NCBI GenBank assembly: GCA_021513695.1
Contig: CP084166.1
Location: 256,001-320,000, forward strand
DNA length: 64,000 bases
Direction of reading: 5' to 3'
From: Candidatus Heimdallarchaeum aukensis
GTDB lineage: Archaea > Asgardarchaeota > Heimdallarchaeia > Heimdallarchaeales > Heimdallarchaeaceae
Made by a program: the position numbers and the translations under genes. The notes beneath the pieces are model-generated. The model was not told the origin of the DNA. It saw only the letters and a list, made by a program, of their open reading frames with translations, and ran no database searches. Within the stretch, counting starts at the first letter, position 1, and each line of letters begins with the position of its first letter. Positions 14,424-39,414 of this stretch are shown here, piece by piece.

Positions 14424-14425
14424 AA

Positions 14426-22273: not shown

Positions 22274-22909
22274 ATGATTGAAATAGTTTTTTTGAATTTC
22301 TTGAATCTCTTTGTTAAAATATGGCTATCAGCTCTTTTAATTAATATTCTACTTTCCACTCTCTTAAAACCAATTTATAAACATCTGTTGGCAATAGGCT
22401 TGGTTTTCAATTTACCAATTAAGCGACTATTTTATTGGATCTATAGAGTACCCATTGAGAATATAGATTGGGAAAACGGTCTAATTAGAACAAAGAAAGT
22501 GAATAATATGGATTGTCTAGCAACTACAGTTGTGATCATGCCTGTATTTATTTTAAGCTACTTATCTAGTTGGTTATTCTATTTTGCAGGTAAAATCTAT
22601 CCCTATGGTTACAAGTTCTTTGGAATTGTTCTTTATATTGTCGCTTCGTTAAGTCTAGCTTTCAGTATTCCTAACTTTGAGGAATTGAAATTGTTTAATA
22701 ACATTAATCTTCATTCCTCTTTGGTCTATTTACTAAAATGGGTATTTGTAGTTATAGTTGTCTTTTCAATAGTTGAGTTTACTTCTATCTCTCTTGATGT
22801 ATTAACTACAGTGATATTAGTTCTTTTAGCTACTCCATTTTATAGTTATAAAGAAGATGAAGAAAATGTAGAGAATATTAAGAAAATTATTGGTGATCCA
22901 TTTGCATAA
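22274..22909 (+). CDS. integral membrane protein
   Basis: 211 aa, about 5 hydrophobic helices. Overlaps the next gene start by 20 nt. Confidence 0.4.
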   Translation: MIEIVFLNFLNLFVKIWLSALLINILLSTLLKPIYKHLLAIGLVFNLPIKRLFYWIYRVPIENIDWENGLIRTKKVNNMDCLATTVVIMPVFILSYLSSWLFYFAGKIYPYGYKFFGIVLYIVASLSLAFSIPNFEELKLFNNINLHSSLVYLLKWVFVVIVVFSIVEFTSISLDVLTTVILVLLATPFYSYKEDEENVENIKKIIGDPFA

Positions 22910-23525
22910 ATGGACTCTTTCCAAAAATGAGCGAATGATACATCTTTATGGTCCCCCAGCAAGTGGTAAGACTACTTTAGCAATTCAATTATCTAGAAAA
23001 GTCTTTCCTCGCTCAACAATTTATTTCATTACTTCGCATAGAAACGCAATTACAAAAAGAGCAAAACAGATACTAAACAAGAATTATCTTAAAGAATTTT
23101 ATTTAATTAAAGTTTCTAGTTTAGATGATTTATTTGAAAAAATTCAATCTATTAATAGCTTAGGAAAAACAATAGGATTGATTGTAATAGATTATATCTC
23201 TGATTTTGTTAGAGGGAAGCTATACAAGGAAGAAGTAAAAAACAAGGTAAGGAAGATATTAGAAAAACTTTTTATTTTCTCCTCACAAAAAGATTGTTTA
23301 GTTGTGATAGTCAATAGTTTTTCAATAAAAAATGAAGCTCCTTTGAATTCTTTAGTTGAAAGTTTTTGTGACATGTCAGTTTATTTGTCGATTAAAGATG
23401 ACAAATACAATTTGGAATCAAATGGTAAAAATATAAAAAGAACTTTTGTAGTCGATGAAAAAATTATTTCCAGCTTCGTTATTGATGAAAAAGGAATTAA
23501 AGATTTAATTATTGTGTCTGAATAA
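22890..23525 (+). CDS. radB: RadB-like short RecA-superfamily ATPase (archaeal RadA paralog)
   Basis: About 200 aa with no N-terminal HhH domain. HLYGPPASGKTTLAIQL Walker A matches RadB-type (GPyASGKTTLALQ). GLIVIDYISDFVR Walker B region. CLVVIVNSFS strand. ORF-track start is a TTG; an in-frame ATG lies at 22935. Confidence 0.65.
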   Translation: MVIHLHKWTLSKNERMIHLYGPPASGKTTLAIQLSRKVFPRSTIYFITSHRNAITKRAKQILNKNYLKEFYLIKVSSLDDLFEKIQSINSLGKTIGLIVIDYISDFVRGKLYKEEVKNKVRKILEKLFIFSSQKDCLVVIVNSFSIKNEAPLNSLVESFCDMSVYLSIKDDKYNLESNGKNIKRTFVVDEKIISSFVIDEKGIKDLIIVSE

Positions 23526-23585
23526 ATTTTTTTCCTTTAAATAGTATTCTTTAGATTAACTAATAAAAAAGGAAGTCAATGGTTA

Positions 23586-24056
23586 ATGTATTCAGAGCAA
23601 GAAGTGATAAGAAAAATAACAGAAACTTGGAAATTTGAAAATAAAGTATGCGTGAAAGAACTACAAATTCCTTTAGTAGGCAAAAATATCAATTATCCTT
23701 TTTTAGAAAATAGAAAAAGCATTCGTATAGATCTTGCTTGCTATGATATTGTATCTGATAAAATTATTTTTGTTGAAGCAGAAAATGGTCTGTGGCTTCC
23801 TCATCCCCAAATTTATAGACCTTTTTGTGATATGTTATATGTTGCTACTCCCTATGATGATAGTTACTATAGAGAAAAGCAACTTGAGTGGGCAAAAAAT
23901 GAAGGAATAGGAGTAATTGAAGTTCTTTATGATGGTTACATTATAGAAACATTAAAACCTGTAGTTTTTCCTGATTCGATGGATATCTCTTTAAGAGAAG
24001 AAGTTCTAGCACATTTTGTTAAGAAACTCAAAAAAAACGAAAAAATAGCTGATTGA
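23586..24056 (+). CDS. hypothetical protein, possible PD-(D/E)xK (restriction-endonuclease-fold, Hjc-like) nuclease
   Basis: 156 aa. IRIDLACYDIVSDKIIFVEAENG resembles the D...(E/D)xK core strands of Hjc (vDLvA....IEVK), but the lysine position is not conserved. Weak. Confidence 0.3.
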   Translation: MYSEQEVIRKITETWKFENKVCVKELQIPLVGKNINYPFLENRKSIRIDLACYDIVSDKIIFVEAENGLWLPHPQIYRPFCDMLYVATPYDDSYYREKQLEWAKNEGIGVIEVLYDGYIIETLKPVVFPDSMDISLREEVLAHFVKKLKKNEKIAD

Positions 24057-24113
24057 TTTTTTATTACTAATTTTTTCTCTCTTTTAAAAACAATTTTATT
24101 TATAATTTAGCTG

Positions 24114-27100
24114 ATGAAAGGAACTGCTATTGCCACATCAAAATTTCAAGGTAAGAATCAAGCTATTTATTCAATAAAAAAAGATGATAAAATTACTTTA
24201 TACTGTGCGTTCATTATTAGACCAAAAAAGAAAGAAGTTGAGAAAAAAGGAGATTATGAAAAAAAAACTACTATTTTTGTAACAGATACTAAAAGTCTTT
24301 TTTTGCCTTTGAATATTGATTCAAGTCTAAAAATTATGCTTCACCGCTTTATTTTACCAGCTAAACTCAGAAAAATAACAAAAGAAAAAAATAAAGGAAT
24401 AGAAATCTCTAGAAAAAAAGAAGAGAGTGAAGAAATCAATGTATTTTTAACTTATTATATCTTTAAAATCTCAAAAACTTATGATCTTACCGTAAATTTA
24501 CTTTCAATGAATACATTGTTAGAAGATTTTGCAGAAACTGTTAGATCTAATTTAAAAGAGTTGTTCTTATCTTTAGGAGCAGTAGGAAGAATAACAGGAG
24601 AATTATTAGAAAAAATCGTTTGTTTGAATGTTACAGATAAATCGTCTATTATCAATAACAACTCTAAAGAATTTTTAACAGAGCTTGCAAAAGAGTTTGT
24701 TGTAATAGAAAAAAGTACAGAAATCCAATCAATTTTCCTCCCTGGTCCTTCCGTAGATTTAAGAACTTCGAGTGTATTTTTTACTCCTTCAAGAATAGAA
24801 TCTGCTTTTCCTTTAGGGAAGACGGAAGAAGGTTTTCTTGTAGGCTTTCCTCCCTCTTTCTCTTACCCCATACTTTTGTGTGGAGATAAGAAAATAAGAA
24901 AAATTTTACTCTCCAAAATTTTAGAAAATTCATCTGCTAAATTTATTGTTTTAGGAGAGATAAATGGAAAAATAAGAAAAAAGAATGTAAAGTTAAGTTT
25001 AGGAGAGAATTTTACATTTAATATCTTATCTCCTATGTTTATGCGAAAAGTACTGTCAGAGAGAGATTATTGGCGTTATCTGAGTGATTTTCTACTCATA
25101 GTTAAAGAAGTAACCGAAGTTAGAAATGAAAATCTTTTACAAATTCCTGAAATAATTAAATTTTATATCCAAGAATATGAACAAAGTGAAGATAACCTCT
25201 TTACTCCTTTTGATTATAGTTCTGTAACTATTGACGATATTTATACAATGCTTACATCTGAACCTGGAGGATTAATAATTTCAGATTATCAATTAGCTGC
25301 TTTACGTTCTGTTTTTACTGATATTAGCGATAATTCAGTTAGCACGGTAACTAATATTAATGGAAAACATGGAATTGAAGCATTAATTGACCAGAACCAT
25401 ATAATTGACTTCAGTAAACATTCAATAAAAGTTAGAAAAATATTCGTTTATTCGTTATTGCTTCAACTTTATTTATATTTTCAAACAGATTTAATTTCTA
25501 AACCAGTAATAGTAGTAATCGACAATGCAGAATTATTCTTTTCAACTGAAGTTGAAAGAACTTTTATTTCAAAACTACTCACACTATTTGAATCTCTACC
25601 TGTAAATATTATCCTTTCAACAAGTTTTCCTTCTCATCTAGCTCTTACTGCTTTTGATTTAACAAATAATAGAATTATAGCTAATCTTCGCTCTGCTAAG
25701 TGTGCAAAATTAATTGCTGATTCACATAATTTATTAAAAGAACAGAAAGAAATGCTTCTTCGCCTTCCACAAAATTCCTTTCTTATCCTCCGGGAAGATT
25801 TTTTTGAGAAACCCTTTCTTGCTTACTTACAAAGAGAAGATCTAAATTTGTTTTCTAATTCCAGACGATTCAATCTTGAAAAATTGGATTCATTAGTAGA
25901 TATTGGAAACACTAGTGCAATTTTAGAAGATGAAAATAGAGTAATTGAACCTATTTTTGATGAAGAAGATCTTCTTCCTATTATGATTGATATTTTAAGA
26001 AAACTTGATTCTAAAGCTCAAAGGGGAATCAACTCTGAATCATTGGTTAATCTCTTTCCTGACTATCCTGCAATTGAAGTTAAGAATGCTGTAAAATTAT
26101 TAGAGTTAAGAGGATTGATTTTTCGTGAGACAGTTGATAAAGAAGGAAGAAAAGGTGAATTTTGGACAAAAATAAGTCCTTTAGGCAAGAAAATGTTATC
26201 TAGATTCGAGATTCAATCCATAGCAAAGAATGATAAAATTGACAAAGTTGAACGAAAAGAAGAGGAGATAACTATTTTAAAAAATGAACAAAGTCATAAT
26301 GAAAAAATATCTAACAAAAAGCAAAACAATGGAAAAAAAGATTCTTTAGAACAATCAGAAGTTATTAACCATTTAGAGAAGGTACAAAACAATTTAAAAA
26401 ATAGTAGGAATCCTGTTGATGCTTTTTTGGATTCAATAATGAAAGTTGAAAAAAAAGCCATACAAATATTCTCAAGAAAAGGTAAAAAGATAGGTAAAAT
26501 TTCAGATTTTTACATTTTGTTACATGACTTTATCCAAAAGGCAAAAGCTGTAGATTTCAATATTCAATCAGAGCTAAAAGAGTTTGAGCAGTACTTAAAC
26601 TCACTTTATGATGTTTTAGAAGATAGTGAATCCCTTGAACAAATGTCAGATGAAATATTAGAAAGAGTAATGAGAAAAGGATTAAATCTCTTAGATCAGA
26701 TACATGTTAAATGTTCTTTTGATAAGATCGAAAGAAACTCCAGTAATCTTCCAGAACTTCTTGAAAAAGAATTAAATTCTGATAAATGGGAAAACATTGA
26801 AACTAAATTTGATGATGAAGTAGTGAGTGATATTAAGCATAATATAAAGAATGACATACAATCAATGTTCTTAACTGATTCTGAAAAACAAGTTTTTCAG
26901 GTACTTAATCATGCATTAGAAGCTCCTAAAGACAGTTTTATTGATTATGCTAGAAAAGCTATAGCAAGACTAATGAAAATAAAAATGCAGTTTTACCCTA
27001 ATCTCGATGATAAAGAGTTTATTATTATTTTTGTAAGATTCTTTGAAAAAAATCAATTACCAATACCGTTTAATGAATCGATTCTGATGGTTGATGAACT

Positions 27101-27269
27101 AGCTTTTCTTAGCACAATTTCCAAACAAAAGAAAAAGGAAATAATCGCGAAAATAATAGAGGAAAATAACTCATTTGTGTTTGATTTAGATGATAAAAGT
27201 AAAGATAGTCTTGTTATTCAGTTAAAGGAAATTGTCTCAAAAAGTCTAAGAAAGTTAAAAGAGGAATAA
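24114..27269 (+). CDS. large hypothetical protein (1051 aa), possibly a degenerate P-loop NTPase-like domain plus a helical C-terminal half
   Basis: No canonical GxxxxGK[ST] found by eye. Walker-B-like PVIVVIDNAELFF and sensor-like IILSTSF blocks are present. The C-terminal 450 aa are charged and helical. Confidence 0.45.
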   Translation: MKGTAIATSKFQGKNQAIYSIKKDDKITLYCAFIIRPKKKEVEKKGDYEKKTTIFVTDTKSLFLPLNIDSSLKIMLHRFILPAKLRKITKEKNKGIEISRKKEESEEINVFLTYYIFKISKTYDLTVNLLSMNTLLEDFAETVRSNLKELFLSLGAVGRITGELLEKIVCLNVTDKSSIINNNSKEFLTELAKEFVVIEKSTEIQSIFLPGPSVDLRTSSVFFTPSRIESAFPLGKTEEGFLVGFPPSFSYPILLCGDKKIRKILLSKILENSSAKFIVLGEINGKIRKKNVKLSLGENFTFNILSPMFMRKVLSERDYWRYLSDFLLIVKEVTEVRNENLLQIPEIIKFYIQEYEQSEDNLFTPFDYSSVTIDDIYTMLTSEPGGLIISDYQLAALRSVFTDISDNSVSTVTNINGKHGIEALIDQNHIIDFSKHSIKVRKIFVYSLLLQLYLYFQTDLISKPVIVVIDNAELFFSTEVERTFISKLLTLFESLPVNIILSTSFPSHLALTAFDLTNNRIIANLRSAKCAKLIADSHNLLKEQKEMLLRLPQNSFLILREDFFEKPFLAYLQREDLNLFSNSRRFNLEKLDSLVDIGNTSAILEDENRVIEPIFDEEDLLPIMIDILRKLDSKAQRGINSESLVNLFPDYPAIEVKNAVKLLELRGLIFRETVDKEGRKGEFWTKISPLGKKMLSRFEIQSIAKNDKIDKVERKEEEITILKNEQSHNEKISNKKQNNGKKDSLEQSEVINHLEKVQNNLKNSRNPVDAFLDSIMKVEKKAIQIFSRKGKKIGKISDFYILLHDFIQKAKAVDFNIQSELKEFEQYLNSLYDVLEDSESLEQMSDEILERVMRKGLNLLDQIHVKCSFDKIERNSSNLPELLEKELNSDKWENIETKFDDEVVSDIKHNIKNDIQSMFLTDSEKQVFQVLNHALEAPKDSFIDYARKAIARLMKIKMQFYPNLDDKEFIIIFVRFFEKNQLPIPFNESILMVDELAFLSTISKQKKKEIIAKIIEENNSFVFDLDDKSKDSLVIQLKEIVSKSLRKLKEE

Positions 27270-27281
27270 AAAGGGAGAAGG

Positions 27282-29393
27282 ATGAATGAAATAGAGTTAA
27301 GTTCTGAAAAACTAGAGGATTTTCAACAGAGGTGTATGGAAACTTTTTTGAAAAAAGAAAATTGCCTTATTTCTTCTCCTTCTTCTACAGGAAAAACATT
27401 TCTAGTTAAAGAATATATTAAAAATTACATTATAGAAAACTACTCAACTATTCTACGATCTCCTAAAAAAATGAAAATAGTGCTACTGTTTCCTTATAAG
27501 GCGATTGCTATACAAGAATTTAACTCACTAGTCGATTTTGCAGAAAAAAAGATGATCAAGATATTCTTATCTGTTGGAGGAGTAAAGTTAAACAAAGAAA
27601 CAGTAATGGAAGCAAATATTATTGTTGGAACATTTGAAAAGTTTTACTTCATTTTGAATCTATTCCCTGAAATTCAAAAGAACTTGAAAATATTGGTAAT
27701 AGATGAATTTCACTTTTTAGGTTATAATAGGGGAAAAGTGATAGAAAGTATATTATTAAAAGTTAAGGAAAACAAAAATACACAGATTATTCTTTTATCC
27801 TCATCAATCGGGAATCCTGAGGAAATAGCAAGTTGGTTAGGCTTTAAACTTTTGCAATATAATAAACGCTTAGTACCGTTGGAATTGAATATAAAAAAAA
27901 TTGAAAAATCTCTTATACAAGAAATATTTTCAATCAGCAAAGCTAACTTACCTGCTATTATATTTCAAAACTCAAGATCTAAAGTAGAAAAATTAGCTCT
28001 AGAATTAGCAAAAAAAAGAAAAGATGTATTGATAAAGAATTTCGAAGAGTTTTTCGTAAATTCTCCTAACCTTATTTCAATAATGGAAGAAGTTTATTTC
28101 CCTGATAAACTAAAAGAAGCAATTTCAAAGAGAGTGGCTTATCATCATGCAGGTTTAAGTGATATAGTTAGAGTATTTGTAGAACAATTATTTCTTTCTG
28201 GAGAGATTGATTACTTGATTTCTACTTCCACTCTGTCAGCTGGAATAAATCTTCCAGCTAAAATGTCAATTTTTGTTATAGAAAGAAAACAATCTGAAGT
28301 TGATAATAATTTAATTTTTCAAATTCTGGGGAGAGCAGGAAGATTTGAGTTTCAAGATAAAGGAATAGGAATTCTATTAATAAGACCAGCTTATTTGAAA
28401 GAATATAGCGACAAACTTTTTGACCAAAGAGGAAAACCTATTTACAGTAGTTTAAAAAGCCAATTTTTTGACTATGATTTTTTGATCAAATATTTTCTGG
28501 TAGAAATCGCATTTTCTAAGGAACCTGTTTCAGTAAGGATAGAAGATTTATTAAAAAAAATCGAGAATTCACTATGGTTTTATAGTAACAAAGAAATATT
28601 CTTAGTATTTAACTCTAAAGATGTTCATTATGCACTTTTTTCTCAAGCCTACTCAAGTTTGGATTATGAAGAGATAGTTGATTATTATGAGAAATTAGAT
28701 GAAGCTTTTGGTATAAAGCCTTCTAATTTACAACTCGTTTCTAAGCAAGAAAAAGGCAAAGGTAACTTCTCTTTTATAATTTTAGAGAATGAAAAAAAAT
28801 ACAAAGTAATTATGAATTTAGAAAGAAGACAATGTTCTTGTCAGTCAAAGTACAGCAATTATCTTTGTAGACATCAGCGTTTTTTGATTAAGATGTATCC
28901 TTTCATGAAAGAATATTGGTTAAATAAATATGGAATAATCGATTGGCTGATCGATAATGGTTTTTTAGTTAGAAGCAAAGGAATGAAGGTTAATCCTACT
29001 TTATTGGGAAAAATTTCTGCAAAATTTTTTATTCACCCTTATTCTTTTCTTCATTTTCTTCATTTATTAATTATCTATCCTAACATTAACTTTTCCTCTT
29101 TTTTTACTAAAGTTGTTCTATTCGATGAACAAATAAAGAGAGATATTAAGTCAAATGAACTAACAAATATACAAGCTTTGCAAATATTTCAACTATTAGT
29201 AAAACAAGAACCATTAACAATATGCTCAAAATACAATATTTCAGACAGTCTATTAGAAAATTGGCAAGAAATATATACCAAGTACAAGAGTTTATTTTTT
29301 GAATTAAAGAAACTTATGGGAAAAAATCTAGCAAAAGGGAACTTTACAAATAATTTCCTCACGAAAAATGAAGTTGAAGAAACAATTCGTTAA
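27282..29393 (+). CDS. Ski2/Hel308-like SF2 DExH helicase with an embedded SWIM-type zinc finger
   Basis: 703 aa. Motif I SSPSSTGKT, Ia PYKAIAIQ, II VIDEFHFLG, III LLSSSIG, V TSTLSAGINLPA (compare Hel308 TPTLAAGVNLPA), VI ILGRAGRFEF. SWIM signature CSCQSKYSNYLCRH (CxCx8CxH) near residue 520. Confidence 0.7.
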   Translation: MNEIELSSEKLEDFQQRCMETFLKKENCLISSPSSTGKTFLVKEYIKNYIIENYSTILRSPKKMKIVLLFPYKAIAIQEFNSLVDFAEKKMIKIFLSVGGVKLNKETVMEANIIVGTFEKFYFILNLFPEIQKNLKILVIDEFHFLGYNRGKVIESILLKVKENKNTQIILLSSSIGNPEEIASWLGFKLLQYNKRLVPLELNIKKIEKSLIQEIFSISKANLPAIIFQNSRSKVEKLALELAKKRKDVLIKNFEEFFVNSPNLISIMEEVYFPDKLKEAISKRVAYHHAGLSDIVRVFVEQLFLSGEIDYLISTSTLSAGINLPAKMSIFVIERKQSEVDNNLIFQILGRAGRFEFQDKGIGILLIRPAYLKEYSDKLFDQRGKPIYSSLKSQFFDYDFLIKYFLVEIAFSKEPVSVRIEDLLKKIENSLWFYSNKEIFLVFNSKDVHYALFSQAYSSLDYEEIVDYYEKLDEAFGIKPSNLQLVSKQEKGKGNFSFIILENEKKYKVIMNLERRQCSCQSKYSNYLCRHQRFLIKMYPFMKEYWLNKYGIIDWLIDNGFLVRSKGMKVNPTLLGKISAKFFIHPYSFLHFLHLLIIYPNINFSSFFTKVVLFDEQIKRDIKSNELTNIQALQIFQLLVKQEPLTICSKYNISDSLLENWQEIYTKYKSLFFELKKLMGKNLAKGNFTNNFLTKNEVEETIR

Positions 29394-29431: not shown

Positions 29432-31276
29432 TTGAAGCTGATGAAAAGAGATAATTTCCTACTTACATTTTTAATTTTAATTATAGTATGTACAATTTTA
29501 CTTATTCCGCTTTATTTTACTGAAGCTCACTATTTAGAACAAGAGGAAGAAAAAAAGCAAATAAAAAATGAGCTTCAATCTACTATCCTTATTCCTCATG
29601 ATATTGTCTTTAATTTCACAGATAAACTTTCTAAATACACTTACTCTTTTGTTCAGAATCTTACATTAAGTGGATTATATGGTTTAGAAATTCTGTTTAA
29701 AACTGGTGGGAGTTTAGCTTTAAGTGATACCTTAAAAGTAAAGATAGTTATGGAGGATAGAATAAATATCAGCTTCACAATAGATAAATTATTTCAAGAC
29801 TCCAATATTCATTCTTTAACAAAAAGTCTTTATTGTGAAAATATTGGAGAAGAAGCAAAGATAACAATATATTTTGAAGGACAATGTTTCATTGGAAAAG
29901 AGGGTAATCTAACTCTTTTCAAAACTATTAATCTTTATTCTTATGATATTCTATCTTTAAAAACAGAAAAAATTATTAGTCCTGACGTTATCCCTCATTC
30001 TATCTCTTTTTCAGGGAATTCTTTCTCCAAAAAGACTTTTTCTGTAAAATCATTTTTTAATGTAGAAAATACAAACATCACAAAAATTAAGTTAAATTTT
30101 ACATTTAATACAAATGATTTTGTTTCACTAGAAAGAAAAATAACTTTTCAGATAGGTTCAAACCTTACAGAAAAGGATTTTAGTTCAGGATTAAACACAA
30201 TTTTATTGTCATTAGATTGTGGAAGTGATCTAAATATTTTGAATATCTCTTTTACAGTAGGTTATAGCTCTGATATCATACATTTAGAGGATTTTAGTTT
30301 AAGTATTGAAGTAGAGAAAGAAGAAGAAACAAGTAAAGAAAGAGAAATTCTTGAATTTAAAGAATGGGAAGGAGATAAGATAGATTTAACTTTTGACATC
30401 TCAATTCTAAAAAATGAGCAGAGTTCTAAGGAGTTAATAATAAACTTAAATCTTAGTTGTGGTTTTGAAGGTGCAACTGTAACTCCTTACATTGAATTTA
30501 GAATTATTTCTGGAATATATACTATTTATACAGGAAAAGTAATGAGTTATGAACAAAGCGAAGAAGAGTTAATAAAAATAAATACTTATACCTACACTTA
30601 CAATAAACCTCTATTAGTTAACTTTTACGCTAAATTAGAAAATAGTGGGAAAGGACAGATCTTTATTTACAATTCTTCTAATCTTACTGCTTCAAAAATC
30701 CCACAAATGTCTTCTAAAGGTTTATTTAGGGAAGTAGAATCAGAGAAAAACGTCTACACTCCTCAACTAGGTGCAGTCATCCTAAATTACTACGATGTCT
30801 TTTTCAATGATTATTCATTAACAATAGATTATGTTTTTAATTTGACTTTTACCCTTTTCACAGATTATGATGAAGTTTTTGATAGAATAAATGTTGGAAT
30901 AACAATAGGCGTAAATACTTCAATAAATAAGATTTTTAGTAAACCTGGTAAGATCTCAATTACTGAAGACGTTAAAATCTATCAAGGATATAACGAGGTT
31001 AAAATCAAGTTAACAATTTATGGTTCAGGAACCTATGTCTCTCTCAGAAATATAACTTATAGACTTAATCCGATTAAAGATTTTTCTTTTCAAGATGAAA
31101 ATCAAACAATTAGTTCGGTAAATATTCCCTTGATAAAACCCCCTTATACAATAAGTTTAGGAATAAGTTCGATTTTAGGTCAATGGGTAATTGGAGGAGT
31201 ATTCGCTAGAGTGTTTAACAGTAGCAAAAAGAAAAATAAACTCTCTAAAAATATGAAATATAAGTTAGAGTTTTAA
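29432..31276 (+). CDS. bitopic membrane/surface hypothetical protein
   Basis: 614 aa. N-terminal anchor FLLTFLILIIVCTILLIPLYF and C-terminal hydrophobic segment ISLGISSILGQWVIGGVFA followed by a KKKNK tail. Middle region beta-rich and Asn/Ser/Thr-rich. Confidence 0.4.
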   Translation: MKLMKRDNFLLTFLILIIVCTILLIPLYFTEAHYLEQEEEKKQIKNELQSTILIPHDIVFNFTDKLSKYTYSFVQNLTLSGLYGLEILFKTGGSLALSDTLKVKIVMEDRINISFTIDKLFQDSNIHSLTKSLYCENIGEEAKITIYFEGQCFIGKEGNLTLFKTINLYSYDILSLKTEKIISPDVIPHSISFSGNSFSKKTFSVKSFFNVENTNITKIKLNFTFNTNDFVSLERKITFQIGSNLTEKDFSSGLNTILLSLDCGSDLNILNISFTVGYSSDIIHLEDFSLSIEVEKEEETSKEREILEFKEWEGDKIDLTFDISILKNEQSSKELIINLNLSCGFEGATVTPYIEFRIISGIYTIYTGKVMSYEQSEEELIKINTYTYTYNKPLLVNFYAKLENSGKGQIFIYNSSNLTASKIPQMSSKGLFREVESEKNVYTPQLGAVILNYYDVFFNDYSLTIDYVFNLTFTLFTDYDEVFDRINVGITIGVNTSINKIFSKPGKISITEDVKIYQGYNEVKIKLTIYGSGTYVSLRNITYRLNPIKDFSFQDENQTISSVNIPLIKPPYTISLGISSILGQWVIGGVFARVFNSSKKKNKLSKNMKYKLEF

Positions 31277-31473: not shown

Positions 31474-34400
31474 ATGACGTCATCTGTCATGTCAACAACT
31501 GTCCTAAAATCATTATTGTTAATTCTAGTTCTTGCTCCAACAATAGTAATGATAAATAATAATGAAAATAATTTATTTAACCTACAAAATGAAGAAAATA
31601 GTAAGAATGAGATTTATTCATTAAACAACAGTAATGAGAATTTTATTGACATATCGAATAAAAAAAATAATGATAATATTCTAGAAAACGACGTAAGAGC
31701 TAGTAATAAGGATAGAATACTTTTATCTTCTCTTCCAGATAGCGCTAATTGGGTAGAAAAAAATGAGTCATTTACTGGTAGATTTTATCAATCATTAAGT
31801 GATTTAGATGAAGATAAAATCCCAGAGCTTATAACTCTTTCTGATACTAATGGGCAAATTCAAGATATTGGAGAACCTGGTTATACAAAATTTTTGGAAT
31901 ATAACGAAACAACAGGAACTTTTTCAAATGAACTATTGTCTATTAGTACAGCGGGCCCTACAATTTATTATCCTGTTGAAGCTTATGCTGATAATGCTGT
32001 ATATTTGCTCGAAAAGACTTTTTCAGCAGATAATTCTGATCATATTTTTGTTTGGAAAAAATGGAATGGAACTGATATTATCAACGTTTCTTCAAATATC
32101 TATATTAAAAATGATGGTTTATATGATTATGACAGTTATGATTTTGATTTAGATGGAAATGTAGATTTAGTTTGTAATTGGGGTTATTATTCAGGTGTAT
32201 GGACAAGATTAGAGTTAGAGAATGGGCTTTTTTCTTCAACTGATTATTCATTTTATAACGGGGGCAGATCTATTTTTGTAGAAGATTTGGATAACGATGG
32301 TAATCCAAATGTAGCTGTACTATATGCTGTTGATAAAATAAATATTTATAATTATAATCCGAGTATAAATGATTTCCAATTTCAACAACAAATTACTGGT
32401 ATTAGTTCATTAAAAGTAATGTATCCTTGGGATTATGACCATAATGGCTATACTGATATTATTGTTGTTTCTCATGAGACTGGAGTTGTTATTTATTCAT
32501 ATGAATGGGATAGTTCTTCTTCTTCTTATGTTCAAAAACTATCATATACCATTCCTGAAGCGACAGATAGTCAATGGACTGGTGTTCCTAGGTATTGTGA
32601 TCTTCTTGGAGATGGAGAAATTACAATGGTTTTTGATATTGTCCGTAATTCACGTTCTGAAATAGGTTTTATCACTTATGAAAATAATAACTTTGCTTTT
32701 AATTCTATTTATAATCATACAGATAGTTCGAAAATTTATTTTACATCTGCTCAAATTGATAATGATCCAGAAAGAGAAATTCTAGTAAATTATGAAAAGA
32801 ATGTAGATGAATTCTATACGAAAATATTAGATTTGGAAGCGTTTAATGAGGGTCGGTATTTTGAAACTTTTGACTCTGATGTTTTTCTTTCTAATCCAAA
32901 TATGAAATATTCTTGGAGCAGGAGTAAAGATAATGTAGTCGTATCTAATGGATCTTTAAAAATTTTAGCTGATGAAACAAATGATGATTATGCAAAACTA
33001 CAACTTTTTTCTGGAACTAAATCAATACAAATCAGAGCTAGAGTAACTTTAAATGGTGACAAATTCAACTATCCTGAAATAATAATTAAAAATGACAATA
33101 ATGAAATAGTAGCCAATTTGACATTTAGTCAAATAGATGGATGGCAAACACCACAGTTAAGCTATTTAAGTGATTACAGAGGACCAACAATAAAAGGCGT
33201 TTGGTATGATTTAATGATCAACTTTGGTTTTAATTCTCTTACATTTTATACAAAGAAGCCTTATCAAGATTATTGGCGCTATATTGCCAGATTTAATATT
33301 AATGGAAATTTAAACGAATTAATTTTTTATCAACGCAATAATGCAGAAATAGAAATGGATTCTATTGACATTTTTTATAGTTATGACAGTGATAATGATG
33401 GGTTAAGTGATGATAGCGAAACTCTAATCTATCAAACTGATCCTCTAGATCCTGATACTGATGACGATGCTTATACAGATGGAGATGAAATAGAAACAGG
33501 AACAGACCCACTTGATCCTTTAAGTTATCCCAAATCTTACTCCTCAATTTTTTCAGAAAATTTTGAAACAGGAATATTAGATGAAAATAATTGGAGTTTG
33601 TATTCTTCCAATAATGTTGGAGAATGGACTATTGTTAAATATCAAGGAAACTATTGGGTACAGCATCTTTATTCAGGTAGTGTGATAGGACATACTGATC
33701 CTAACATACTTGTTTCATCTCCTCTAAATTTTGGTGACAATTTTACTATTTCATATGTAGTTAGACCTCTCACTTATCAATACGATGAGGTTGGAATTTT
33801 CTTTCTCTGTCCTAATGGTACAGGTTTCAGACTAGGAACTTTTAATGTATATCATGATTTTATAAGAATAGGTGCTTCTAGCTATTATGATTTTGCTTTC
33901 ACAGCTGATTTAGATAAGACTTATTATATGAAAGTTACTTATGTAGATGATACAGTTACCGTTTTTTGTAATGACTCTCAAATTGCACAGGTAAATAATA
34001 TAGACCTCCCATCTGAAGGATCATTAGGATTAAGGAGTAGAGGATATTATGGTCAAGCTTCTCATGCTCTTTATGACAATATTACAATACATAGTACAGC
34101 TTTGTTAAATGAGACCTTTGATTTTGATATCTTTGACACTTATTCAAATTGGATAAGAGATACTACTTCTTTTACTGTTGATACAACCAATAGTTGGTTA
34201 CATAAAGGTACAACAGGTAGTTATAATCATATTGCAAAATATAATAAAACAATACAATTTCCATTCACTATAAATGTAAGAGGAAGATTGGTAAGTGGAG
34301 GATATGATTATACATTTCCTGGATTATATCTCTGTTATCCAAATGGTTCGTCAATGTCAATTGTTTTTAATGGAGGAGGTACAGGAGGAGACTATTGGAC

Positions 34401-37400
34401 ATTTTGGGGTCGCAGAGATTCGGACTATGGTCCTCAAGCAGAAAATGTATGGTGGAATATTAAAGTTCTTTTGGATAATGGAACTCAATTTCTCTACTCC
34501 AAAAGTGACACTGATAGTAGTTGGATTTTAATTGCTAAAACAAATCTTTTATTTGAAAGTAATCATATTTATGTAGGTTTTAGTAGTCCTTGGGACGCTG
34601 TTTTTGACATAGATTATATTGAGATAATTTCGAGGAGTACAAATCCAATTGATACTGATTCTGATGGATTACTAGATGAGGATGAGATAAATATTTACGG
34701 TACTAACCCTTCTAATTCTGATACTGATTCTGATGGTATGCCTGACGGTTGGGAGGTTACTAACAGTTTGGACCCCTTAACTGATGATTCTTCTTTAGAC
34801 GCTGATTCTGATGGTTTAACTAATTTAGAAGAATACTCTTCTGGTACTGACCCCAATAATAGTGATTCTGATAATGATGGTTTAACTGATGGTTCAGAGG
34901 TTAATACTTACAATACTGACCCCAATGATTCTGATACTGATTCTGATGGTATGCCTGACGGTTGGGAAGTAAACTACAGTTTGGACCCCTTAACTGATGA
35001 TTCTTCTTTAGACGCTGATTCTGACAGTTTAACTAATTTAGAAGAGTATCAAAATAACACTGACCCCAATAATAGTGATTCTGATAATGATGGTTTAACT
35101 GATGGTTCAGAGGTTAATACTTACAATACTGACCCCAATAATTCTGATACTGATTCTGATGGTATGCCTGATGGTTGGGAAGTAAACTACAGTTTGGACC
35201 CCTTAACTGATGATTCTTCTTTAGACCCCGATTCTGACAGTTTAACTAATTTAGAAGAGTATCAAAATAACACTGACCCCAATAATAGTGATTCTGATAA
35301 TGATGATTTAACTGATGGTTCAGAGGTTAATACTTACAATACTGACCCCAATAATTCTGATACTGATTCTGATGGTATGCCTGATGGTTGGGAAGTAAAC
35401 TACAGTTTGGACCCCTTAACTGATGATTCTTCTTTAGACGCTGATTCTGATGGTTTAACTAATTTAGAAGAATACTCTTCTGGTACTAACCCTTCTAATT
35501 CTGATACTGATTCTGATGGTATGCCTGATGGTTGGGAAGTAAACTACAGTTTGGACCCCTTAACTGATGATTCTTCTTTAGACCCCGATTCTGACAGTTT
35601 AACTAATTTAGAAGAGTATCAAAATAACACTGACCCCAATAATAGTGATTCTGATAATGATGATTTAACTGATGGTTCAGAGGTTAATACTTACAATACT
35701 GACCCCAATAATTCTGATACTGATTCTGATGGTATGCCTGATGGTTGGGAAGTAAACTACAGTTTGGACCCCTTAACTGATGATTCTTCTTTAGACGCTG
35801 ATTCTGACAGTTTAACTAATTTAGAAGAATACTCTTCTGGTACTAACCCTTCTAATTCTGATACTGATTCTGATGGTATGCCTGATGGTTGGGAGGTTAC
35901 TAACAGTTTGGACCCCTTAACTGATGATTCTTCTTTAGACGCTGATTCTGATGGTTTAACTAATTTAGAAGAATACTCTTCTGGTACTGACCCCAATAAT
36001 AGTGATTCTGATTCTGATGGTATGCCTGACGGTTGGGAAGTAAACTACAGTTTGGACCCCTTAACTGATGATTCTTCTTTAGACGCTGATTCTGATGGTT
36101 TAACTAATTTAGAAGAGTATCAAAATAACACTGACCCCAATAATAGTGATTCTGATAATGATGGTTTAACTGATGGTTCAGAGGTTAATACTTACAATAC
36201 TGACCCCAATGATTCTGATACTGATTCTGATGGTATGCCTGACGGTTGGGAAGTAAACTACAGTTTGGACCCCTTAACTGATGATTCTTCTTTAGACGCT
36301 GATTCTGACAGTTTAACTAATTTAGAAGAGTATCAAAATAACACTGACCCCAATAATTCTGATTCTGATAATGATGGTTTAACTGATGGTTCAGAGGTTA
36401 ATACTTACGGTACTGACCCTAATAATTCTGATTCTGATAATGATGGTTTAACTGATGGTCAAGAGGTTAATACTTACGGTACTGACCCTAATAATTCTGA
36501 TACTGATGGAGACAGTATGCCTGATGATTGGGAAGCAAATAATAATTTAGATCCTTTAATTGATGATTCTTCTTTTGATGCTGATTCTGACGGTTTAACA
36601 AATTTAGAAGAATACTCTTCTGGTACTGACCCCAATAATAGTGATTCTGATAATGATGGTTTAACTGATGGTTCAGAGGTTAATACTTACTCTACAGATC
36701 CATTAGATTCTGACACCGACTCTGATGGTATGCTTGATGGTTGGGAGGTTACTAACAGTTTGGACCCCTTAACTGATGATTCTTCTTTAGACGCTGATTC
36801 TGACAGTTTAACTAATTTAGAAGAGTATCAAAATAACACTGACCCCAATAATAGTGATTCTGATAATGATGGTTTAACTGATGGTTCAGAGGTTAATACT
36901 TACAATACTGACCCCAATGATTCTGATTCTGATAATGATGGTATGCCTGACGGTTGGGAGGTTACTAACAGTTTGGACCCCTTAACTGATGATTCTTCTT
37001 TAGACGCTGATTCTGATGGTTTAACTAATTTAGAAGAATATTCTTCTGGTACTGGCCCTACTAATTCTGACACTGATTCTGATGGTATGCCTGACGGTTG
37101 GGAGGTTACTAACAGTTTGGACCCCTTAACTGATGATTCTTCTTTAGACACTGATTCTGATGGTTTAACTAATTTAGAAGAATACTCTTCTGGTACTGAC
37201 CCCAATAATAGTGATTCTGATTCTGATGGTATGCCTGACGGTTGGGAGGTTACTAACAGTTTGGACCCCTTAACTGATGATTCTTCTTTAGACGCTGATT
37301 CTGACAGTTTAACTAATTTAGAAGAATACTCTTCTGGTACTGACCCTAATGATTCTGACACTGATTCCGATGGCATACCTGATGGTTCAGAGGTTAATAA

Positions 37401-39414
37401 TTACTCCACTGATCCTTCTAATAGTGACACTGATTTTGATGGTTTAACTGATGGTTCAGAGGTTCTCTATGGTACTGATCCTTCTAATAATGACACCGAT
37501 TCTGATGGTTTAACTGATGGTTCAGAGGTTAATACTTACTCTACTGACCCTTTGGCTTCTGACACTGATTTTGATGGTATACCTGATGGTTGGGAAGTTA
37601 CTAACGGTTTAGACCCGTTATCTGATGATTCTTCTTTCGACCCCGATAATGACGGTTTAACTAATTTAGAAGAATACTCTTCTGGTACTGACCCCAATGA
37701 TTCTGACACTGATTCCGATGGCATACCTGACGGTTGGGAGGTTACTAACAGTTTAGACCCATTATCTGATGATTCTTCTTTCGACCCCGATAATGACGGT
37801 TTAACTAATTTAGAAGAATACTCTTCTGGTACTGACCCTAATGATAGTGACACTGATTTTGATGGTTTAACTGATGGTTCAGAGGTTAATATTTACTCCA
37901 CTGACCCTAATAATAGTGACACCGATTCTGATGATATGCCTGATGGGTGGGAAGTCAGCAACAATTTGAACCCATTGAAAGACGATTCTGCTTGGGATAT
38001 TGATTCTGATGGTTTAACTAATTTAGAAGAATACACTTCTGGTACTGACCCTAATGATTCTGACACTGACTCTGATGGTATGTCTGACGGTTGGGAAGTA
38101 AACTACAGTTTGAATCCGTTATCCGATGATTCCTCTTTGGATGCTGATTCTGATGGTTTAACTAATTTAGAAGAATACTCTTCTGGTACTGACCCTAATG
38201 ATTCTGACACTGATAATGACGGTTTAACAGATTATGAAGAAATAGCGATTTATGGTACAAAACCAAATAAAAACGACACCGATGGAGATGGTGTTCCTGA
38301 TGGTGATGAAATACAAAATGGTTCAAACCCAAACAAACCTTCTTACTTACAGTTTCTGATATTATATTCAATAAAAAGGTATACTTTTGAACTGATATTT
38401 GGAATAATTGCAATAATTGGTATCATTGTAGCTACAATATTCTTAAAGAAAAAGAGAAAAACCCAAAAAATCTTAGCATCAAAAAATAGATCAAGACAAA
38501 GTACAATAAAAAGAGCAAAGAAAAAGAATTTATTGTTATCTTTCAGTGATAATTTGGAGATTATAGAACAGGAATGGAAACAGATTAATGATGAGAAATA
38601 TTCTGATAAAACATTGTTTAATACTGATTATTCTAATAAAATAAAAGAAACTTTTGCTAAATTAATAGAGACTACAATAGAATTTAACTATTACTTTACC
38701 AAAGGGACAAAATATTTGTCAAATGTTGAATGGTTAAATATAAAGAAAAGAATAAACAATTTACTTGACAAATTTAGAGACTTTTTACTACAAGAATTAG
38801 AGAAAGTTGATTTTACTAAAAAATTCTCGATAATAAAAAATGAAATAGAAAAGGTAGTTGTTGAAAATTTGCGAAACTTTGACGAAAAAGAGTTATTAAA
38901 ACCATTTAATATATTAAATACTCTAGCTACTATAAAAAATGAAATAGACAGGACTAAAGAGTTCATCGACGAATTTACTTTTTCTAAATTGACCTCTTAC
39001 TGGGGTAATTTGTCTAATCAAATTACAAATATTATTGTTGAAATAGAAAGACAAAAAGAGGAAACAGAAAGAATTATACAAGAAACAAAGGAAATAATGG
39101 AAAACGAGAAATTGAATCAAGAACGATTAGAAATTCTAAACAAAGTAGTTTCTATCTATACACAAATTTCATTATCTAAACTTTCTTCGTTGCTTAAGTT
39201 ACCTTCGATATCTGCTCTAACTTATTGGTTATCAACTCAAAATTTAGATATTGATTATATAATTGTCGACGATGAAATAATCTTTGAAAAACAAAAAGGA
39301 GAAAAAAATGAAAATGATGTTGATTATGATAACGAAGTAACTAATGCGATAGACTCTCTATTAAAACAATTTGATGAATGGGCAAAAAAGGATGAAGGAA
39401 AAAAAATAGATTAA
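31474..39414 (+). CDS. giant surface adhesin-like protein (2646 aa): signal/anchor, FG-GAP-like propeller repeats, LamG-like jelly-roll domains, about 50 thrombospondin-type-3-like Ca-binding repeats, TM helix, 330-aa cytoplasmic coiled-coil tail
   Basis: N-terminal hydrophobic LLLILVLAPTIVMI. DxDxDG loops DFDLDGNVDLV, DLDNDGNPNVAV, DYDHNGYTDIIVV, DLLGDGEITMVF (FG-GAP-like). Repeating DTDSDGMPDGWEV / DADSDGLTNLEEY / DSDNDGLTDGSEV units match DxDxDGxxDxxE. TM ELIFGIIAIIGIIVATIF followed by KKKRK and a charged helical tail. Confidence 0.75.
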   Translation: MTSSVMSTTVLKSLLLILVLAPTIVMINNNENNLFNLQNEENSKNEIYSLNNSNENFIDISNKKNNDNILENDVRASNKDRILLSSLPDSANWVEKNESFTGRFYQSLSDLDEDKIPELITLSDTNGQIQDIGEPGYTKFLEYNETTGTFSNELLSISTAGPTIYYPVEAYADNAVYLLEKTFSADNSDHIFVWKKWNGTDIINVSSNIYIKNDGLYDYDSYDFDLDGNVDLVCNWGYYSGVWTRLELENGLFSSTDYSFYNGGRSIFVEDLDNDGNPNVAVLYAVDKINIYNYNPSINDFQFQQQITGISSLKVMYPWDYDHNGYTDIIVVSHETGVVIYSYEWDSSSSSYVQKLSYTIPEATDSQWTGVPRYCDLLGDGEITMVFDIVRNSRSEIGFITYENNNFAFNSIYNHTDSSKIYFTSAQIDNDPEREILVNYEKNVDEFYTKILDLEAFNEGRYFETFDSDVFLSNPNMKYSWSRSKDNVVVSNGSLKILADETNDDYAKLQLFSGTKSIQIRARVTLNGDKFNYPEIIIKNDNNEIVANLTFSQIDGWQTPQLSYLSDYRGPTIKGVWYDLMINFGFNSLTFYTKKPYQDYWRYIARFNINGNLNELIFYQRNNAEIEMDSIDIFYSYDSDNDGLSDDSETLIYQTDPLDPDTDDDAYTDGDEIETGTDPLDPLSYPKSYSSIFSENFETGILDENNWSLYSSNNVGEWTIVKYQGNYWVQHLYSGSVIGHTDPNILVSSPLNFGDNFTISYVVRPLTYQYDEVGIFFLCPNGTGFRLGTFNVYHDFIRIGASSYYDFAFTADLDKTYYMKVTYVDDTVTVFCNDSQIAQVNNIDLPSEGSLGLRSRGYYGQASHALYDNITIHSTALLNETFDFDIFDTYSNWIRDTTSFTVDTTNSWLHKGTTGSYNHIAKYNKTIQFPFTINVRGRLVSGGYDYTFPGLYLCYPNGSSMSIVFNGGGTGGDYWTFWGRRDSDYGPQAENVWWNIKVLLDNGTQFLYSKSDTDSSWILIAKTNLLFESNHIYVGFSSPWDAVFDIDYIEIISRSTNPIDTDSDGLLDEDEINIYGTNPSNSDTDSDGMPDGWEVTNSLDPLTDDSSLDADSDGLTNLEEYSSGTDPNNSDSDNDGLTDGSEVNTYNTDPNDSDTDSDGMPDGWEVNYSLDPLTDDSSLDADSDSLTNLEEYQNNTDPNNSDSDNDGLTDGSEVNTYNTDPNNSDTDSDGMPDGWEVNYSLDPLTDDSSLDPDSDSLTNLEEYQNNTDPNNSDSDNDDLTDGSEVNTYNTDPNNSDTDSDGMPDGWEVNYSLDPLTDDSSLDADSDGLTNLEEYSSGTNPSNSDTDSDGMPDGWEVNYSLDPLTDDSSLDPDSDSLTNLEEYQNNTDPNNSDSDNDDLTDGSEVNTYNTDPNNSDTDSDGMPDGWEVNYSLDPLTDDSSLDADSDSLTNLEEYSSGTNPSNSDTDSDGMPDGWEVTNSLDPLTDDSSLDADSDGLTNLEEYSSGTDPNNSDSDSDGMPDGWEVNYSLDPLTDDSSLDADSDGLTNLEEYQNNTDPNNSDSDNDGLTDGSEVNTYNTDPNDSDTDSDGMPDGWEVNYSLDPLTDDSSLDADSDSLTNLEEYQNNTDPNNSDSDNDGLTDGSEVNTYGTDPNNSDSDNDGLTDGQEVNTYGTDPNNSDTDGDSMPDDWEANNNLDPLIDDSSFDADSDGLTNLEEYSSGTDPNNSDSDNDGLTDGSEVNTYSTDPLDSDTDSDGMLDGWEVTNSLDPLTDDSSLDADSDSLTNLEEYQNNTDPNNSDSDNDGLTDGSEVNTYNTDPNDSDSDNDGMPDGWEVTNSLDPLTDDSSLDADSDGLTNLEEYSSGTGPTNSDTDSDGMPDGWEVTNSLDPLTDDSSLDTDSDGLTNLEEYSSGTDPNNSDSDSDGMPDGWEVTNSLDPLTDDSSLDADSDSLTNLEEYSSGTDPNDSDTDSDGIPDGSEVNNYSTDPSNSDTDFDGLTDGSEVLYGTDPSNNDTDSDGLTDGSEVNTYSTDPLASDTDFDGIPDGWEVTNGLDPLSDDSSFDPDNDGLTNLEEYSSGTDPNDSDTDSDGIPDGWEVTNSLDPLSDDSSFDPDNDGLTNLEEYSSGTDPNDSDTDFDGLTDGSEVNIYSTDPNNSDTDSDDMPDGWEVSNNLNPLKDDSAWDIDSDGLTNLEEYTSGTDPNDSDTDSDGMSDGWEVNYSLNPLSDDSSLDADSDGLTNLEEYSSGTDPNDSDTDNDGLTDYEEIAIYGTKPNKNDTDGDGVPDGDEIQNGSNPNKPSYLQFLILYSIKRYTFELIFGIIAIIGIIVATIFLKKKRKTQKILASKNRSRQSTIKRAKKKNLLLSFSDNLEIIEQEWKQINDEKYSDKTLFNTDYSNKIKETFAKLIETTIEFNYYFTKGTKYLSNVEWLNIKKRINNLLDKFRDFLLQELEKVDFTKKFSIIKNEIEKVVVENLRNFDEKELLKPFNILNTLATIKNEIDRTKEFIDEFTFSKLTSYWGNLSNQITNIIVEIERQKEETERIIQETKEIMENEKLNQERLEILNKVVSIYTQISLSKLSSLLKLPSISALTYWLSTQNLDIDYIIVDDEIIFEKQKGEKNENDVDYDNEVTNAIDSLLKQFDEWAKKDEGKKID
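34640..38330 (+). repeat. intragenic near-identical tandem nucleotide repeat array (213-nt and 144-nt unit variants) encoding the TSP3-like repeats
   Basis: Unit starts at 34933, 35146 and 35359 are exactly 213 nt apart with long perfectly identical stretches. The shorter 144-nt variants lack the DSDNDGLTDGSEV half-unit. The array extends about 3.7 kb. Confidence 0.85.

Follow-up and report, generated by a model that had tools for sequence, protein, structure and literature searches.

This locus raises the question of what a giant, multi-domain protein is, which of its parts face the outside of the cell, and in what kind of organism it works. The gene lies at 31474..39414 on the forward (+) strand of a 64-kb window (positions 256,001 to 320,000 of contig CP084166.1; "the window" means this whole stretch), and residues (aa) are numbered along its 2646-aa product throughout. 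The gene is one uninterrupted open reading frame (ORF) with an ATG start, and its length of 2646 aa is that given in an earlier note, made from the letters alone. That note had read the product as a propeller, jelly-roll domains, about 50 thrombospondin type 3 (TSP3)-like repeats, a transmembrane (TM) helix and a long tail; profile and fold searches agreed, and this domain reading is largely right. As judged from its sequence, the product is a surface glycoprotein that a Heimdallarchaeum-like Asgard archaeon anchors in its membrane with type-I topology. It is a repeat adhesin of otherwise ordinary architecture with an unusual, lineage-restricted cytoplasmic module.

The topology was estimated from hydropathy and from the distribution of glycosylation sequons. 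In a Kyte-Doolittle scan, only aa 9-27 and aa 2303-2325 were hydrophobic over a length sufficient for a membrane helix, and the single TM helix expected before was thus placed as the sole C-terminal one, at aa 2303-2325. A TM helix was found at the same position in the full-length ortholog and in the paralog described below. N-x-S/T sequons numbered 17 in the head and 42 in the array (59 outside), with 2 in the tail. The two hydrophobic segments, the KKKRK following the second of them, and the sequon distribution therefore put head and stalk on the outer side of the membrane and the final 321 residues in the cytoplasm. The N-terminal signal and KKKRK put the repeat array on the extracellular side, and the propeller and TSP3 profiles both matched.

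The repeat stalk was assigned by profile. When the whole protein was scanned against Pfam, only two families matched: TSP3_bac (PF18884; 366 bits, E=3.6e-112, 38 stretches) and Binary_toxB, the calcium-binding domain of the anthrax protective antigen (PA) (PF03495; E=1.2e-13). Eukaryotic TSP_3 (PF02412) gave no match to the whole protein at E up to 1, so that the proposed relationship to TSP3 profiles holds for the bacterial family and not for the eukaryotic one. Our own parse gave 54 DxDxD units of 20-28 aa each, two at aa 638-682 and 52 contiguous at aa 1060-2291. All five cysteines of the protein lie before aa 955 and the repeat array contains none, which bears out the claim of about 50 uninterrupted, cysteine-free TSP3-like units. 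The peptide strings cited in the earlier note are all present, including DTDSDGMPDGWEV, DADSDGLTNLEEY and DSDNDGLTDGSEV. Three unit types were distinguished: type A of 26 aa (DTDSDGMPDGWEV..LDPLTDDSSL), type B of 22 aa (DADSDGLTNLEEY..GTDPNNS) and type C of 23 aa (DSDNDGLTDGSEVNTYNTDPNNS). They are combined in super-repeats of ABC (71 aa, 213 nt) and AB (48 aa, 144 nt), and Tandem Repeats Finder (TRF) gave periods of 213, 144, 357 and 495 nt with matches of 79-96%. The mean DNA identity among 18 AB units was 86% (range 74-100%), and the array is therefore being homogenised or was recently expanded. The repeat count of the ortholog differs from that of the window protein. G+C was 0.35-0.38 across the repeat region versus about 0.28 for the whole window, owing to the Asp/Gly/Thr codon content of the repeats.

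At the N-terminus, DxDxDG calcium loops were located at aa 223 (DFDLDGNVDLV), 271 (DLDNDGNPNVAV), 320 (DYDHNGYTDIIVV) and 376 (DLLGDGEITMVF). These canonical propeller loops are spaced 48-56 aa apart and are kept in three orthologs. FG-GAP_3 (PF13517) matched the N-terminal 500 aa with 39.1 bits (E=1.1e-9, 3 stretches), above its cut-off of 26.9 bits, in agreement with the FG-GAP/integrin-alpha-like propeller with four such loops proposed before. A hidden Markov model (HMM) built from the four obvious blades recovered exactly four (aa 212-425, E 5e-20 to 2.7e-26), with an additional weak blade-1 loop at aa 109-127 (independent E 0.16). From spacing only (~50-60 residues), we infer that three degenerate blades, with loops near aa 110, 170 and 428, may bring the total to seven in aa 99-462.

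Three beta-rich segments follow the propeller, each starting with E(T/N)F(D/E)..W and finishing with D.I.I. AlphaFold2 (AF2) was run with alignments of 2-3 sequences, and the predicted local distance difference test score (pLDDT) was 43.5 for aa 460-1060 and 57 for the tail. Domain 1 (aa 463-636) was the sole confidently modelled part of the aa 460-1060 run (pLDDT 75-84). Its model has the curved two-sheet jelly-roll sandwich of the LamG/ConA-like superfamily and matched ERGIC-53, VIP36 and legume lectins in Foldseek at E about 4e-6, which points to a ConA-like lectin/glucanase fold. Domain 3 was modelled with low confidence; it was aligned to domain 1 by hhalign with a probability of 91.9% (E=7e-7, 163 columns). 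Domain 2 (aa 690-878) had pLDDT <50, and hhalign of it against domain 1, domain 3 and the window's own DUF1080 protein was not significant. It is present in the homolog P0001 and absent from P0002 and from the ortholog at locus L010. Domains 1-3 were matched by no Pfam model, LamG and DUF1080 families included (Pfam E up to 10, NCBIfam E up to 1), and NCBIfam had nothing for any part of the protein. PDB sequence searches with aa 460-640, aa 683-1060 and the tail returned chance-level matches only (proteasome beta7, RSV M2-1, GapR). "LamG-like", as the jelly-roll domains had been called, thus holds at the superfamily and fold level for two of the three domains (1 and 3), leaving out aa 690-878, and not at the family level.

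We then turn to the cytoplasmic tail, which matched no Pfam family at normal thresholds. A profile was built from aa 2394-2646 and one close homolog and was run against 1.84 billion representatives. It gave 18 matches at E up to 1e-3, every one of which reaches the last residue of its protein, and all members carrying a name are from Ca. Heimdallarchaeaceae. Alignment of 17 C-termini showed a conserved pattern, R-L-x-x-L-x-K-I-x-x-x-Y-x-x-I-S-L-x-K-L-x-x-L-L-x-F ... W-L ... I-x-G-x-E-I-I-F, and a terminal consensus, AIDxLLxxFxEWExxGKGKK, which always forms the last residues of the protein. The tail as a whole is 53.5% identical to that of the PR6 ortholog and its last 100 aa are 69% identical. 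Within the window, the tail HMM matched only this gene among all six-frame ORFs. A further homolog search with a 16-sequence tail alignment returned nothing.

Sixteen members of the tail family were taken singly and scanned with Pfam, in which the PCI cut-off is 22 bits. PCI matched in 7/16, CSN8_PSD8_EIF3K in 5/16 and Paf67/eIF3l in 4/16; the best PCI match had E=2.3e-6, and P0016 (28 bits, E=2.5e-6) is the one member above the cut-off. DSSP assignment of the AF2 tail model gave five helices of 18-61 residues (pLDDT about 50-80), then H-H-H-E-E, then a terminal helix, and this order of secondary structure is consistent with the PCI layout. We conclude with moderate confidence that the tail consists of a helical region, a PCI-type winged helix and a family-specific terminal helix, and is no plain coiled coil. 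The former description of a 330-aa charged coiled-coil tail therefore stands for a long charged tail (about 321 aa; Lys 14%, Glu 11%) that is predicted helical in a low-confidence model, and has to be replaced, for its end, by a conserved module with a PCI-type winged helix. Cytoskeletal coupling by a plain coiled coil is not supported, given this module, and the integrin tail motifs GFFKR and NPxY are both missing from the tail. The L..F..W spacing of the terminal helix is perhaps reminiscent of MIM1 motifs. Homology of the winged helix to the EAP30 proteins encoded beside some relatives was rejected (hhalign probability <1%).

Two further observations concern the tail in relatives. In the metagenomic relative L001 (585..760), the TSP3 and TM part and the tail are in different frames, joined at an A-rich run (aaaaaaaaggaagagaaaaaggaaaaa). 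The idea that the tail is a separate gene in relatives was rejected, as homology in L001 runs on through the A-rich run in the shifted frame; this is therefore a homopolymer frameshift, and the stalk-tail fusion is conserved. The break is most likely a homopolymer sequencing error rather than a real or programmed frameshift. At L013 (1856..6071), the 192-aa protein P0020 carries the PCI-like module after a ScoMcrA_N-like domain and sits among leucine-rich-repeat proteins, one of which has a faint PCI match. From P0020, the PCI-like module may occur outside Heimdallarchaeaceae.

The relatives of the whole protein were few. When the first 1060 residues were searched against 5.8 billion proteins, only two real relatives were found, both partial and both from "Candidatus Heimdallarchaeaceae archaeon" metagenome-assembled genomes (MAGs), with 63% and 77% identity. 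A scan of GTDB species genomes gave two loci, and these lie on one and the same complete chromosome, that of Ca. Heimdallarchaeum endolithica PR6 (3.33 Mb). One of them (L010) encodes a full-length ortholog of 2162 aa with signal, propeller, ConA-like domain 1, TSP3 array, TM helix and tail in the same order and with neither domain 2 nor domain 3; its head is 77% identical to aa 1-636. The other (L009) encodes a paralog of 2273 aa, whose head is a right-handed beta-helix and which continues with a TSP3 array, a TM helix and a tail that has the same terminal module. Searches for related loci with query sets A5 (genomes), A7 and A1 (metagenomes) found none, and looking up the exact window protein gave no record. 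Since the homologs are all from Ca. Heimdallarchaeaceae, the host is a Heimdall-lineage Asgard archaeon and no DPANN symbiont.

The ectodomains of the tail family also vary. By Pfam, Beta_helix/NosD together with TSP3_bac was found in P0008, P0010, P0011 and P0014, Beta_helix alone in P0017, and TSP3 alone in P0005 and P0006. On this comparison, the proteins appear to form a small Heimdallarchaeaceae-specific family in which interchangeable heads (propeller plus ConA-like, or right-handed beta-helix) are set on a common chassis of stalk, TM helix and tail. Immediately after the beta-helix paralog, at L009 13505..14722, comes a shortened copy of the propeller N-terminus, 68-76% identical to aa ~6-340 of the window protein, and it looks like a remnant of head swapping or duplication. 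In the paralog itself (L009 ORF 6302..13123, aa ~1940-2110), and in P0017 (aa ~520-590), about 10-12 tandem repeats of 13-14 aa with the pattern xxLGFxxxxE(W/Y)xxA were seen. They lie in the tails of beta-helix paralogs, between the TM helix and the PCI-like module, and are absent from the window protein. At L002 13714..23642 and L011 5257..7913, genes in tandem encode surface proteins that combine TSP3 repeats with different heads (beta-helix, PQQ/FG-GAP propeller); such arrays in relatives suggest a rapidly diversifying repertoire of surface proteins.

Table 1. Features of the 31474..39414 product, its upstream neighbour and related loci. Unprefixed coordinates are those of the window; those with an L number belong to loci of tail-family relatives.
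Feature	Coordinates	Strand	Basis
N-terminal signal peptide or signal anchor (aa 1-28; K12, then hydrophobic SLLLILVLAPTIVMI)	31474..31557	+	Kyte-Doolittle scan; same K/R + hydrophobic start in orthologs
Asn-rich low-complexity linker (aa 29-98)	31558..31767	+	translation; little conservation between orthologs
FG-GAP beta-propeller region (aa 99-462)	31768..32859	+	Pfam FG-GAP_3, blade HMM
ConA-like lectin/glucanase beta-sandwich domain 1 (aa 463-636)	32860..33381	+	
Two TSP3-like calcium-binding units, interdomain linker (aa 638-682)	33385..33519	+	Pfam TSP3_bac E=1.3e-7 on segment; motif parse
All-beta domain 2 (aa 690-878), DUF1080/LamG-like sequence motifs	33541..34107	+	
ConA-like domain 3 (aa 880-1056), homologous to domain 1	34111..34641	+	hhalign
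Contiguous array of 52 cysteine-free TSP3_bac units (aa 1060-2291)	34651..38346	+	Pfam, TRF, unit parse
Single TM helix (aa 2303-2325), then KKKRK	38380..38448	+	hydropathy maximum 2.74; positive-inside residues
Cytoplasmic basic juxtamembrane stretch and conserved alpha-helical region (aa 2326-2549), with conserved FIDEFTFSKLTSYWG motif	38449..39120	+	AF2 DSSP; conserved with P0004, P0005, L010
PCI-type winged-helix subdomain (aa about 2550-2607)	39121..39294	+	Pfam across tail family; DSSP H-H-H-E-E
Conserved terminal amphipathic helix and lysine-rich end (NEVTNAIDSLLKQFDEWAKKDEGKKID)	39331..39411	+	alignment of 17 C-termini
Upstream 614-aa putative bitopic membrane protein	29432..31276	+	N-terminal TM, sequon-rich middle, weakly hydrophobic C-terminal segment + KKKNK
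Ubiquitin-like-system and EAP30 (ESCRT-II-like) genes near two independent tail-family members	L002 7047..9850; L003 6955..9746, 13760..15459; L008 780..1595; L010 7334..8149		

The gene neighbourhood was compared with those of the relatives. All genes from 4169 to 39414 are co-directional. The product of 29432..31276 matched nothing in Pfam or NCBIfam, and no homolog of it was found beside the orthologs. At 14426..20791 (+) lies a gene for a 2121-aa type-I surface protein with a signal, a C-terminal TM helix and a 13-aa tail. Its Pfam matches include Big_1, Big_3_5, CarboxypepD_reg, MG4, A2M and Invasin_D3, and it may be an alpha-2-macroglobulin-like or immunoglobulin (Ig)-repeat adhesin; it has no PCI-type tail module. 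Between the giant surface genes, 22890..29393 (+) encodes a 211-aa KaiC/STAND-like AAA ATPase, a 156-aa ORF, a 1051-aa cytoplasmic protein with no family match and a DEAD/Helicase_C helicase with a weak SWIM finger match, and could be a DNA-processing or defence cluster. The co-directional block proposed before, with a second giant and a bitopic partner, is thus real as to strand, but it is interrupted by cytoplasmic ATPase and helicase genes and its bitopic member is not conserved beside the orthologs. No flanking gene is common to the window and the PR6 locus; instead, the genes upstream of the ortholog in PR6 (L010) and in a second MAG (L008) are those of a beta-CASP RNase and an EAP30 protein. 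This speaks against a conserved attachment apparatus formed with the Ig-repeat giant and the 29432..31276 product.

Elsewhere, members of the tail family tend to adjoin other TSP3-bearing surface genes. Moreover, P0011 and P0014 come after a cassette of ThiF-E1, JAB, an 87-aa Ubl-like protein ending in Gly and a UFC1-like E2. After P0011 (L003) come an EAP30-like gene with a borderline score of 26.6 bits and a Band_7 gene, and the PR6-type ortholog is two genes away from an EAP30 gene (43.5 bits). No ubiquitin-like or EAP30 genes were found at the window locus or in three other tail-family contexts, and we regard this proximity as a lead only.

Other genes of the window were observed as well. 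The 352-aa product of 54721..55779 (+) begins like an archaeal type IV pilin (Pilin_N/DUF7289) and continues with a fused ConA-like domain of the DUF1080 family (3-keto-disaccharide hydrolase; E=2.1e-9), and looks like a pilin-displayed lectin or hydrolase domain. A TnpB/Cas12f-like mobile-element protein (Cas12f1-like_TNB) is encoded at 1989..3443 (-) and is 41% identical to an ORF in L003; an rve-family integrase with helix-turn-helix domains, a further mobile-element gene, lies at 5854..6792 (+). Searches for tRNA, rRNA and Rfam families gave no match in the window.

Taken together, we consider the protein to be probably an adhesin or lectin-like receptor on a stalk stiffened by calcium, with a tail that oligomerises or docks onto partners in the cytoplasm. 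Ca2+ would load the acidic 52-unit array and the propeller loops, as suggested by characterised TSP3/PA-type DxDxDG sites and FG-GAP loops, and the Ca2+-bound array would form an extended, semi-rigid and glycosylated stalk. Such a stalk could hold the propeller/lectin head at a good distance from the single membrane, and there the head may bind glycan or protein ligands on other cells or on matrix. The length of the stalk would be variable, because its units are near-identical at the DNA level and repeat number can therefore change. Inside the cell, by analogy with eukaryotic PCI domains and with the proposal of Makarova et al., the PCI-like module and the terminal helix might let tails oligomerise or dock onto winged-helix partners, and by this the receptor would be clustered or anchored.

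Several points weigh against this reading. The proposed function is drawn from the identity of the domains, and enzymes that degrade polysaccharides have ConA-like and beta-helix heads just as typically; the head might therefore serve catalysis and not adhesion. The N-terminal hydrophobic segment, if uncleaved, would tether the protein at both ends. As for the single domains, the seven-blade count comes from spacing while the blade HMM detects four, no fold could be assigned to domain 2, and the copy number of 52 units could be affected by assembly. The tail model is poor, with pLDDT falling from 57 overall to 31-44 over the last ~100 residues, which include the predicted winged helix. The PCI score of the window tail itself is 16.8 bits (E=0.0078), under the 22-bit cut-off, and the PDB profile search ranks PCI proteins first (a PCI-domain protein, eIF3a, eIF3c) at a non-significant E of 0.14-0.4.

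The protein could also be a structural spacer of the envelope or glycocalyx, part of a non-crystalline coat in place of an S-layer, with no specific ligand and with a tail that fixes it to a submembrane scaffold. Asgard cells do lack an S-layer and show surface densities without order (PMC9834061); the stalk is acidic, carries 42 sequons and is both very long and variable in length, and several paralogs with the same chassis occur per genome, such genes being found in tandem. On the other hand, the heads are diverse and well conserved (that of the ortholog is 77% identical), and their folds belong to ligand-binding classes (propeller, lectin-like sandwich, beta-helix). Recognition therefore fits better than bulk coating, and a spacer is unlikely. 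The same heads raise the case of a surface-tethered carbohydrate-active enzyme or substrate-capture protein, in which ConA-like domains, or the beta-helices of the paralogs, bind or cleave polysaccharides for nutrient acquisition and are held out into the environment by the stalk. This is rather improbable: Pfam and NCBIfam gave no profile match to glycoside hydrolase or lyase families, identity to enzymes is just 6-17% with catalytic residues not identifiable, and an exo-enzyme needs no conserved cytoplasmic tail of 321 aa.

A further alternative is a transmembrane signalling receptor or a membrane-tethered transcription factor, in which an extracellular ligand releases or re-orients the winged-helix tail, which then binds a signalling partner or DNA. 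DNA binding is common among winged-helix domains, the tail is conserved with a basic GKGKK end, and the module also occurs in the short anchorless proteins P0016, P0019 and P0020, some of which are perhaps truncated gene calls. The winged helix, however, matches the PCI clan, a protein-protein scaffold, and not DNA-binding helix-turn-helix families; the tail mixes acidic residues with lysines and is not strongly basic, and no protease, kinase or other transducer is conserved nearby in the loci examined. We consider such a role very improbable. The earlier note had instead proposed that the products of 31474..39414, 14426..20791 and 29432..31276 form a host or partner attachment apparatus of an AT-rich, small-genome, DPANN-type episymbiont. 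A GC of about 28% and two giant surface proteins encoded on one strand agree with it, but all homologs are from Ca. Heimdallarchaeaceae, and the ortholog lies in the nearest complete genome, of 3.33 Mb. Moreover, genes for cytoplasmic ATPases and helicases lie between the surface genes, the neighbour on the upstream side is not kept in the relatives and the Ig-repeat giant has no tail module, so that this proposal retains practically no credibility. A bolder version of the stalked adhesin or receptor is that its tail couples Heimdallarchaeal surface receptors to Asgard ubiquitin/ESCRT-II machinery, or builds a membrane-bound PCI-type scaffold, as a prokaryotic forerunner of receptor sorting or of PCI/MPN complexes; we give this a small chance.

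In the literature, no description was found of this tail family, of Asgard proteins with TSP3 arrays or of surface proteins that end in a PCI-type tail. TSP3_bac stalks are already known in prokaryotic surface proteins. To our knowledge, it is unusual for an archaeal bitopic receptor to have a large conserved domain inside the cell. Asgard cells have a single membrane and no S-layer, and cryo-electron tomography (cryo-ET) showed complex surface proteins on them that were left unidentified and are thought to mediate cell-cell contacts relevant to eukaryogenesis (PMC9834061). The stalked-protein model fits this cryo-ET picture (PMC9834061), and the locus offers a concrete full-length candidate for such a surface structure in the Heimdall lineage. 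The PCI-type winged helix, predicted within a conserved tail domain of about 250 residues, provides a testable hypothesis for how outside contacts might be linked to inside machinery in the lineage closest to eukaryotes. If the protein is merely one more repeat adhesin, the value lies mainly in corrected annotation (Asgard and not DPANN; no conserved apparatus).

Giant genes in Heimdallarchaeum have been mentioned in general terms (PMC8813620). The aloposons of this genus (Otus/Ephialtes) contain tandem genes of 3000-6000 aa beside tRNA integration sites, with an upstream MinD/ParA gene set (Wu et al. 2022, PMC8813620). The window gene shares with them the genus-level lineage and a very large ORF, but it is single, encodes 2646 aa and consists of ordinary surface-protein modules. 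As a single gene of this size, with no tRNA in 64 kb, it was rejected as an aloposon member.

FG-GAP/integrin-repeat proteins have already been reported in Asgard archaea, as far as Liu et al. (2021) is related in PMC9258230 and PMC9197732. The window protein resembles FG-GAP/integrin-alpha propellers in a profile match above cut-off, in its recurrent DxDxDG loops and in their extracellular position on a type-I protein with a cytoplasmic tail. Unlike integrin alpha, its propeller, with four canonical blades detected, is followed by ConA-like domains and a TSP3 stalk. The Ig-like thigh and calf legs (by Pfam) and the GFFKR/NPxY tail motifs are missing, and integrin identity was ruled out on these two grounds; there is no beta-subunit either, although no search aimed at one was made.

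The signature domain of thrombospondin and COMP combines a type 3 calcium-binding 'wire' with an L-type-lectin-like C-terminal domain. A similar combination of tandem DxDxDGxxDxxE repeats and a ConA/L-lectin-like sandwich is found here. In contrast, the repeats match TSP3_bac and not TSP_3, the array has no cysteines and hence no disulfides, there are 52 units versus about 13, the lectin-like domains come before the repeats, and EGF and coiled-coil oligomerisation domains are lacking. Thrombospondin identity was rejected for the missing PF02412 match and the cysteine-free array. Bacterial TSP3_bac proteins and the calcium site of anthrax PA belong to the same repeat family by profile; the A unit DTDSDGMPDGWEV resembles the PA calcium loop. 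Giant Ca2+-rigidified repeat adhesins of the repeats-in-toxin (RTX) type are a functional analogue, in that a calcium-stiffened extender projects ligand-binding domains. Unlike these bacterial TSP3 and RTX adhesins, the window protein is archaeal and has a C-terminal TM helix and a large conserved cytoplasmic domain in place of an outer-membrane or type I secretion system anchor; its extender is made of TSP3 units and not of Ig-like domains.

For the tail, the comparison is with PCI proteins of the proteasome lid, the COP9 signalosome and eIF3, which share the order of helical region, PCI-type winged helix and C-terminal helix that is predicted here. PCI-like winged-helix C-termini were also described on membrane-associated kinases of euryarchaeal ESCRT loci and were proposed to serve oligomerisation or winged-helix docking (Makarova et al. 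2024, PMC10936438). The module of the window protein differs from both in its sub-cut-off score, in the family-specific AIDxLLxxFxEW..GKGKK end and in being carried by a giant adhesin-like protein and not by a kinase. Like that of the kinases, it is placed on the cytoplasmic side of a membrane protein.

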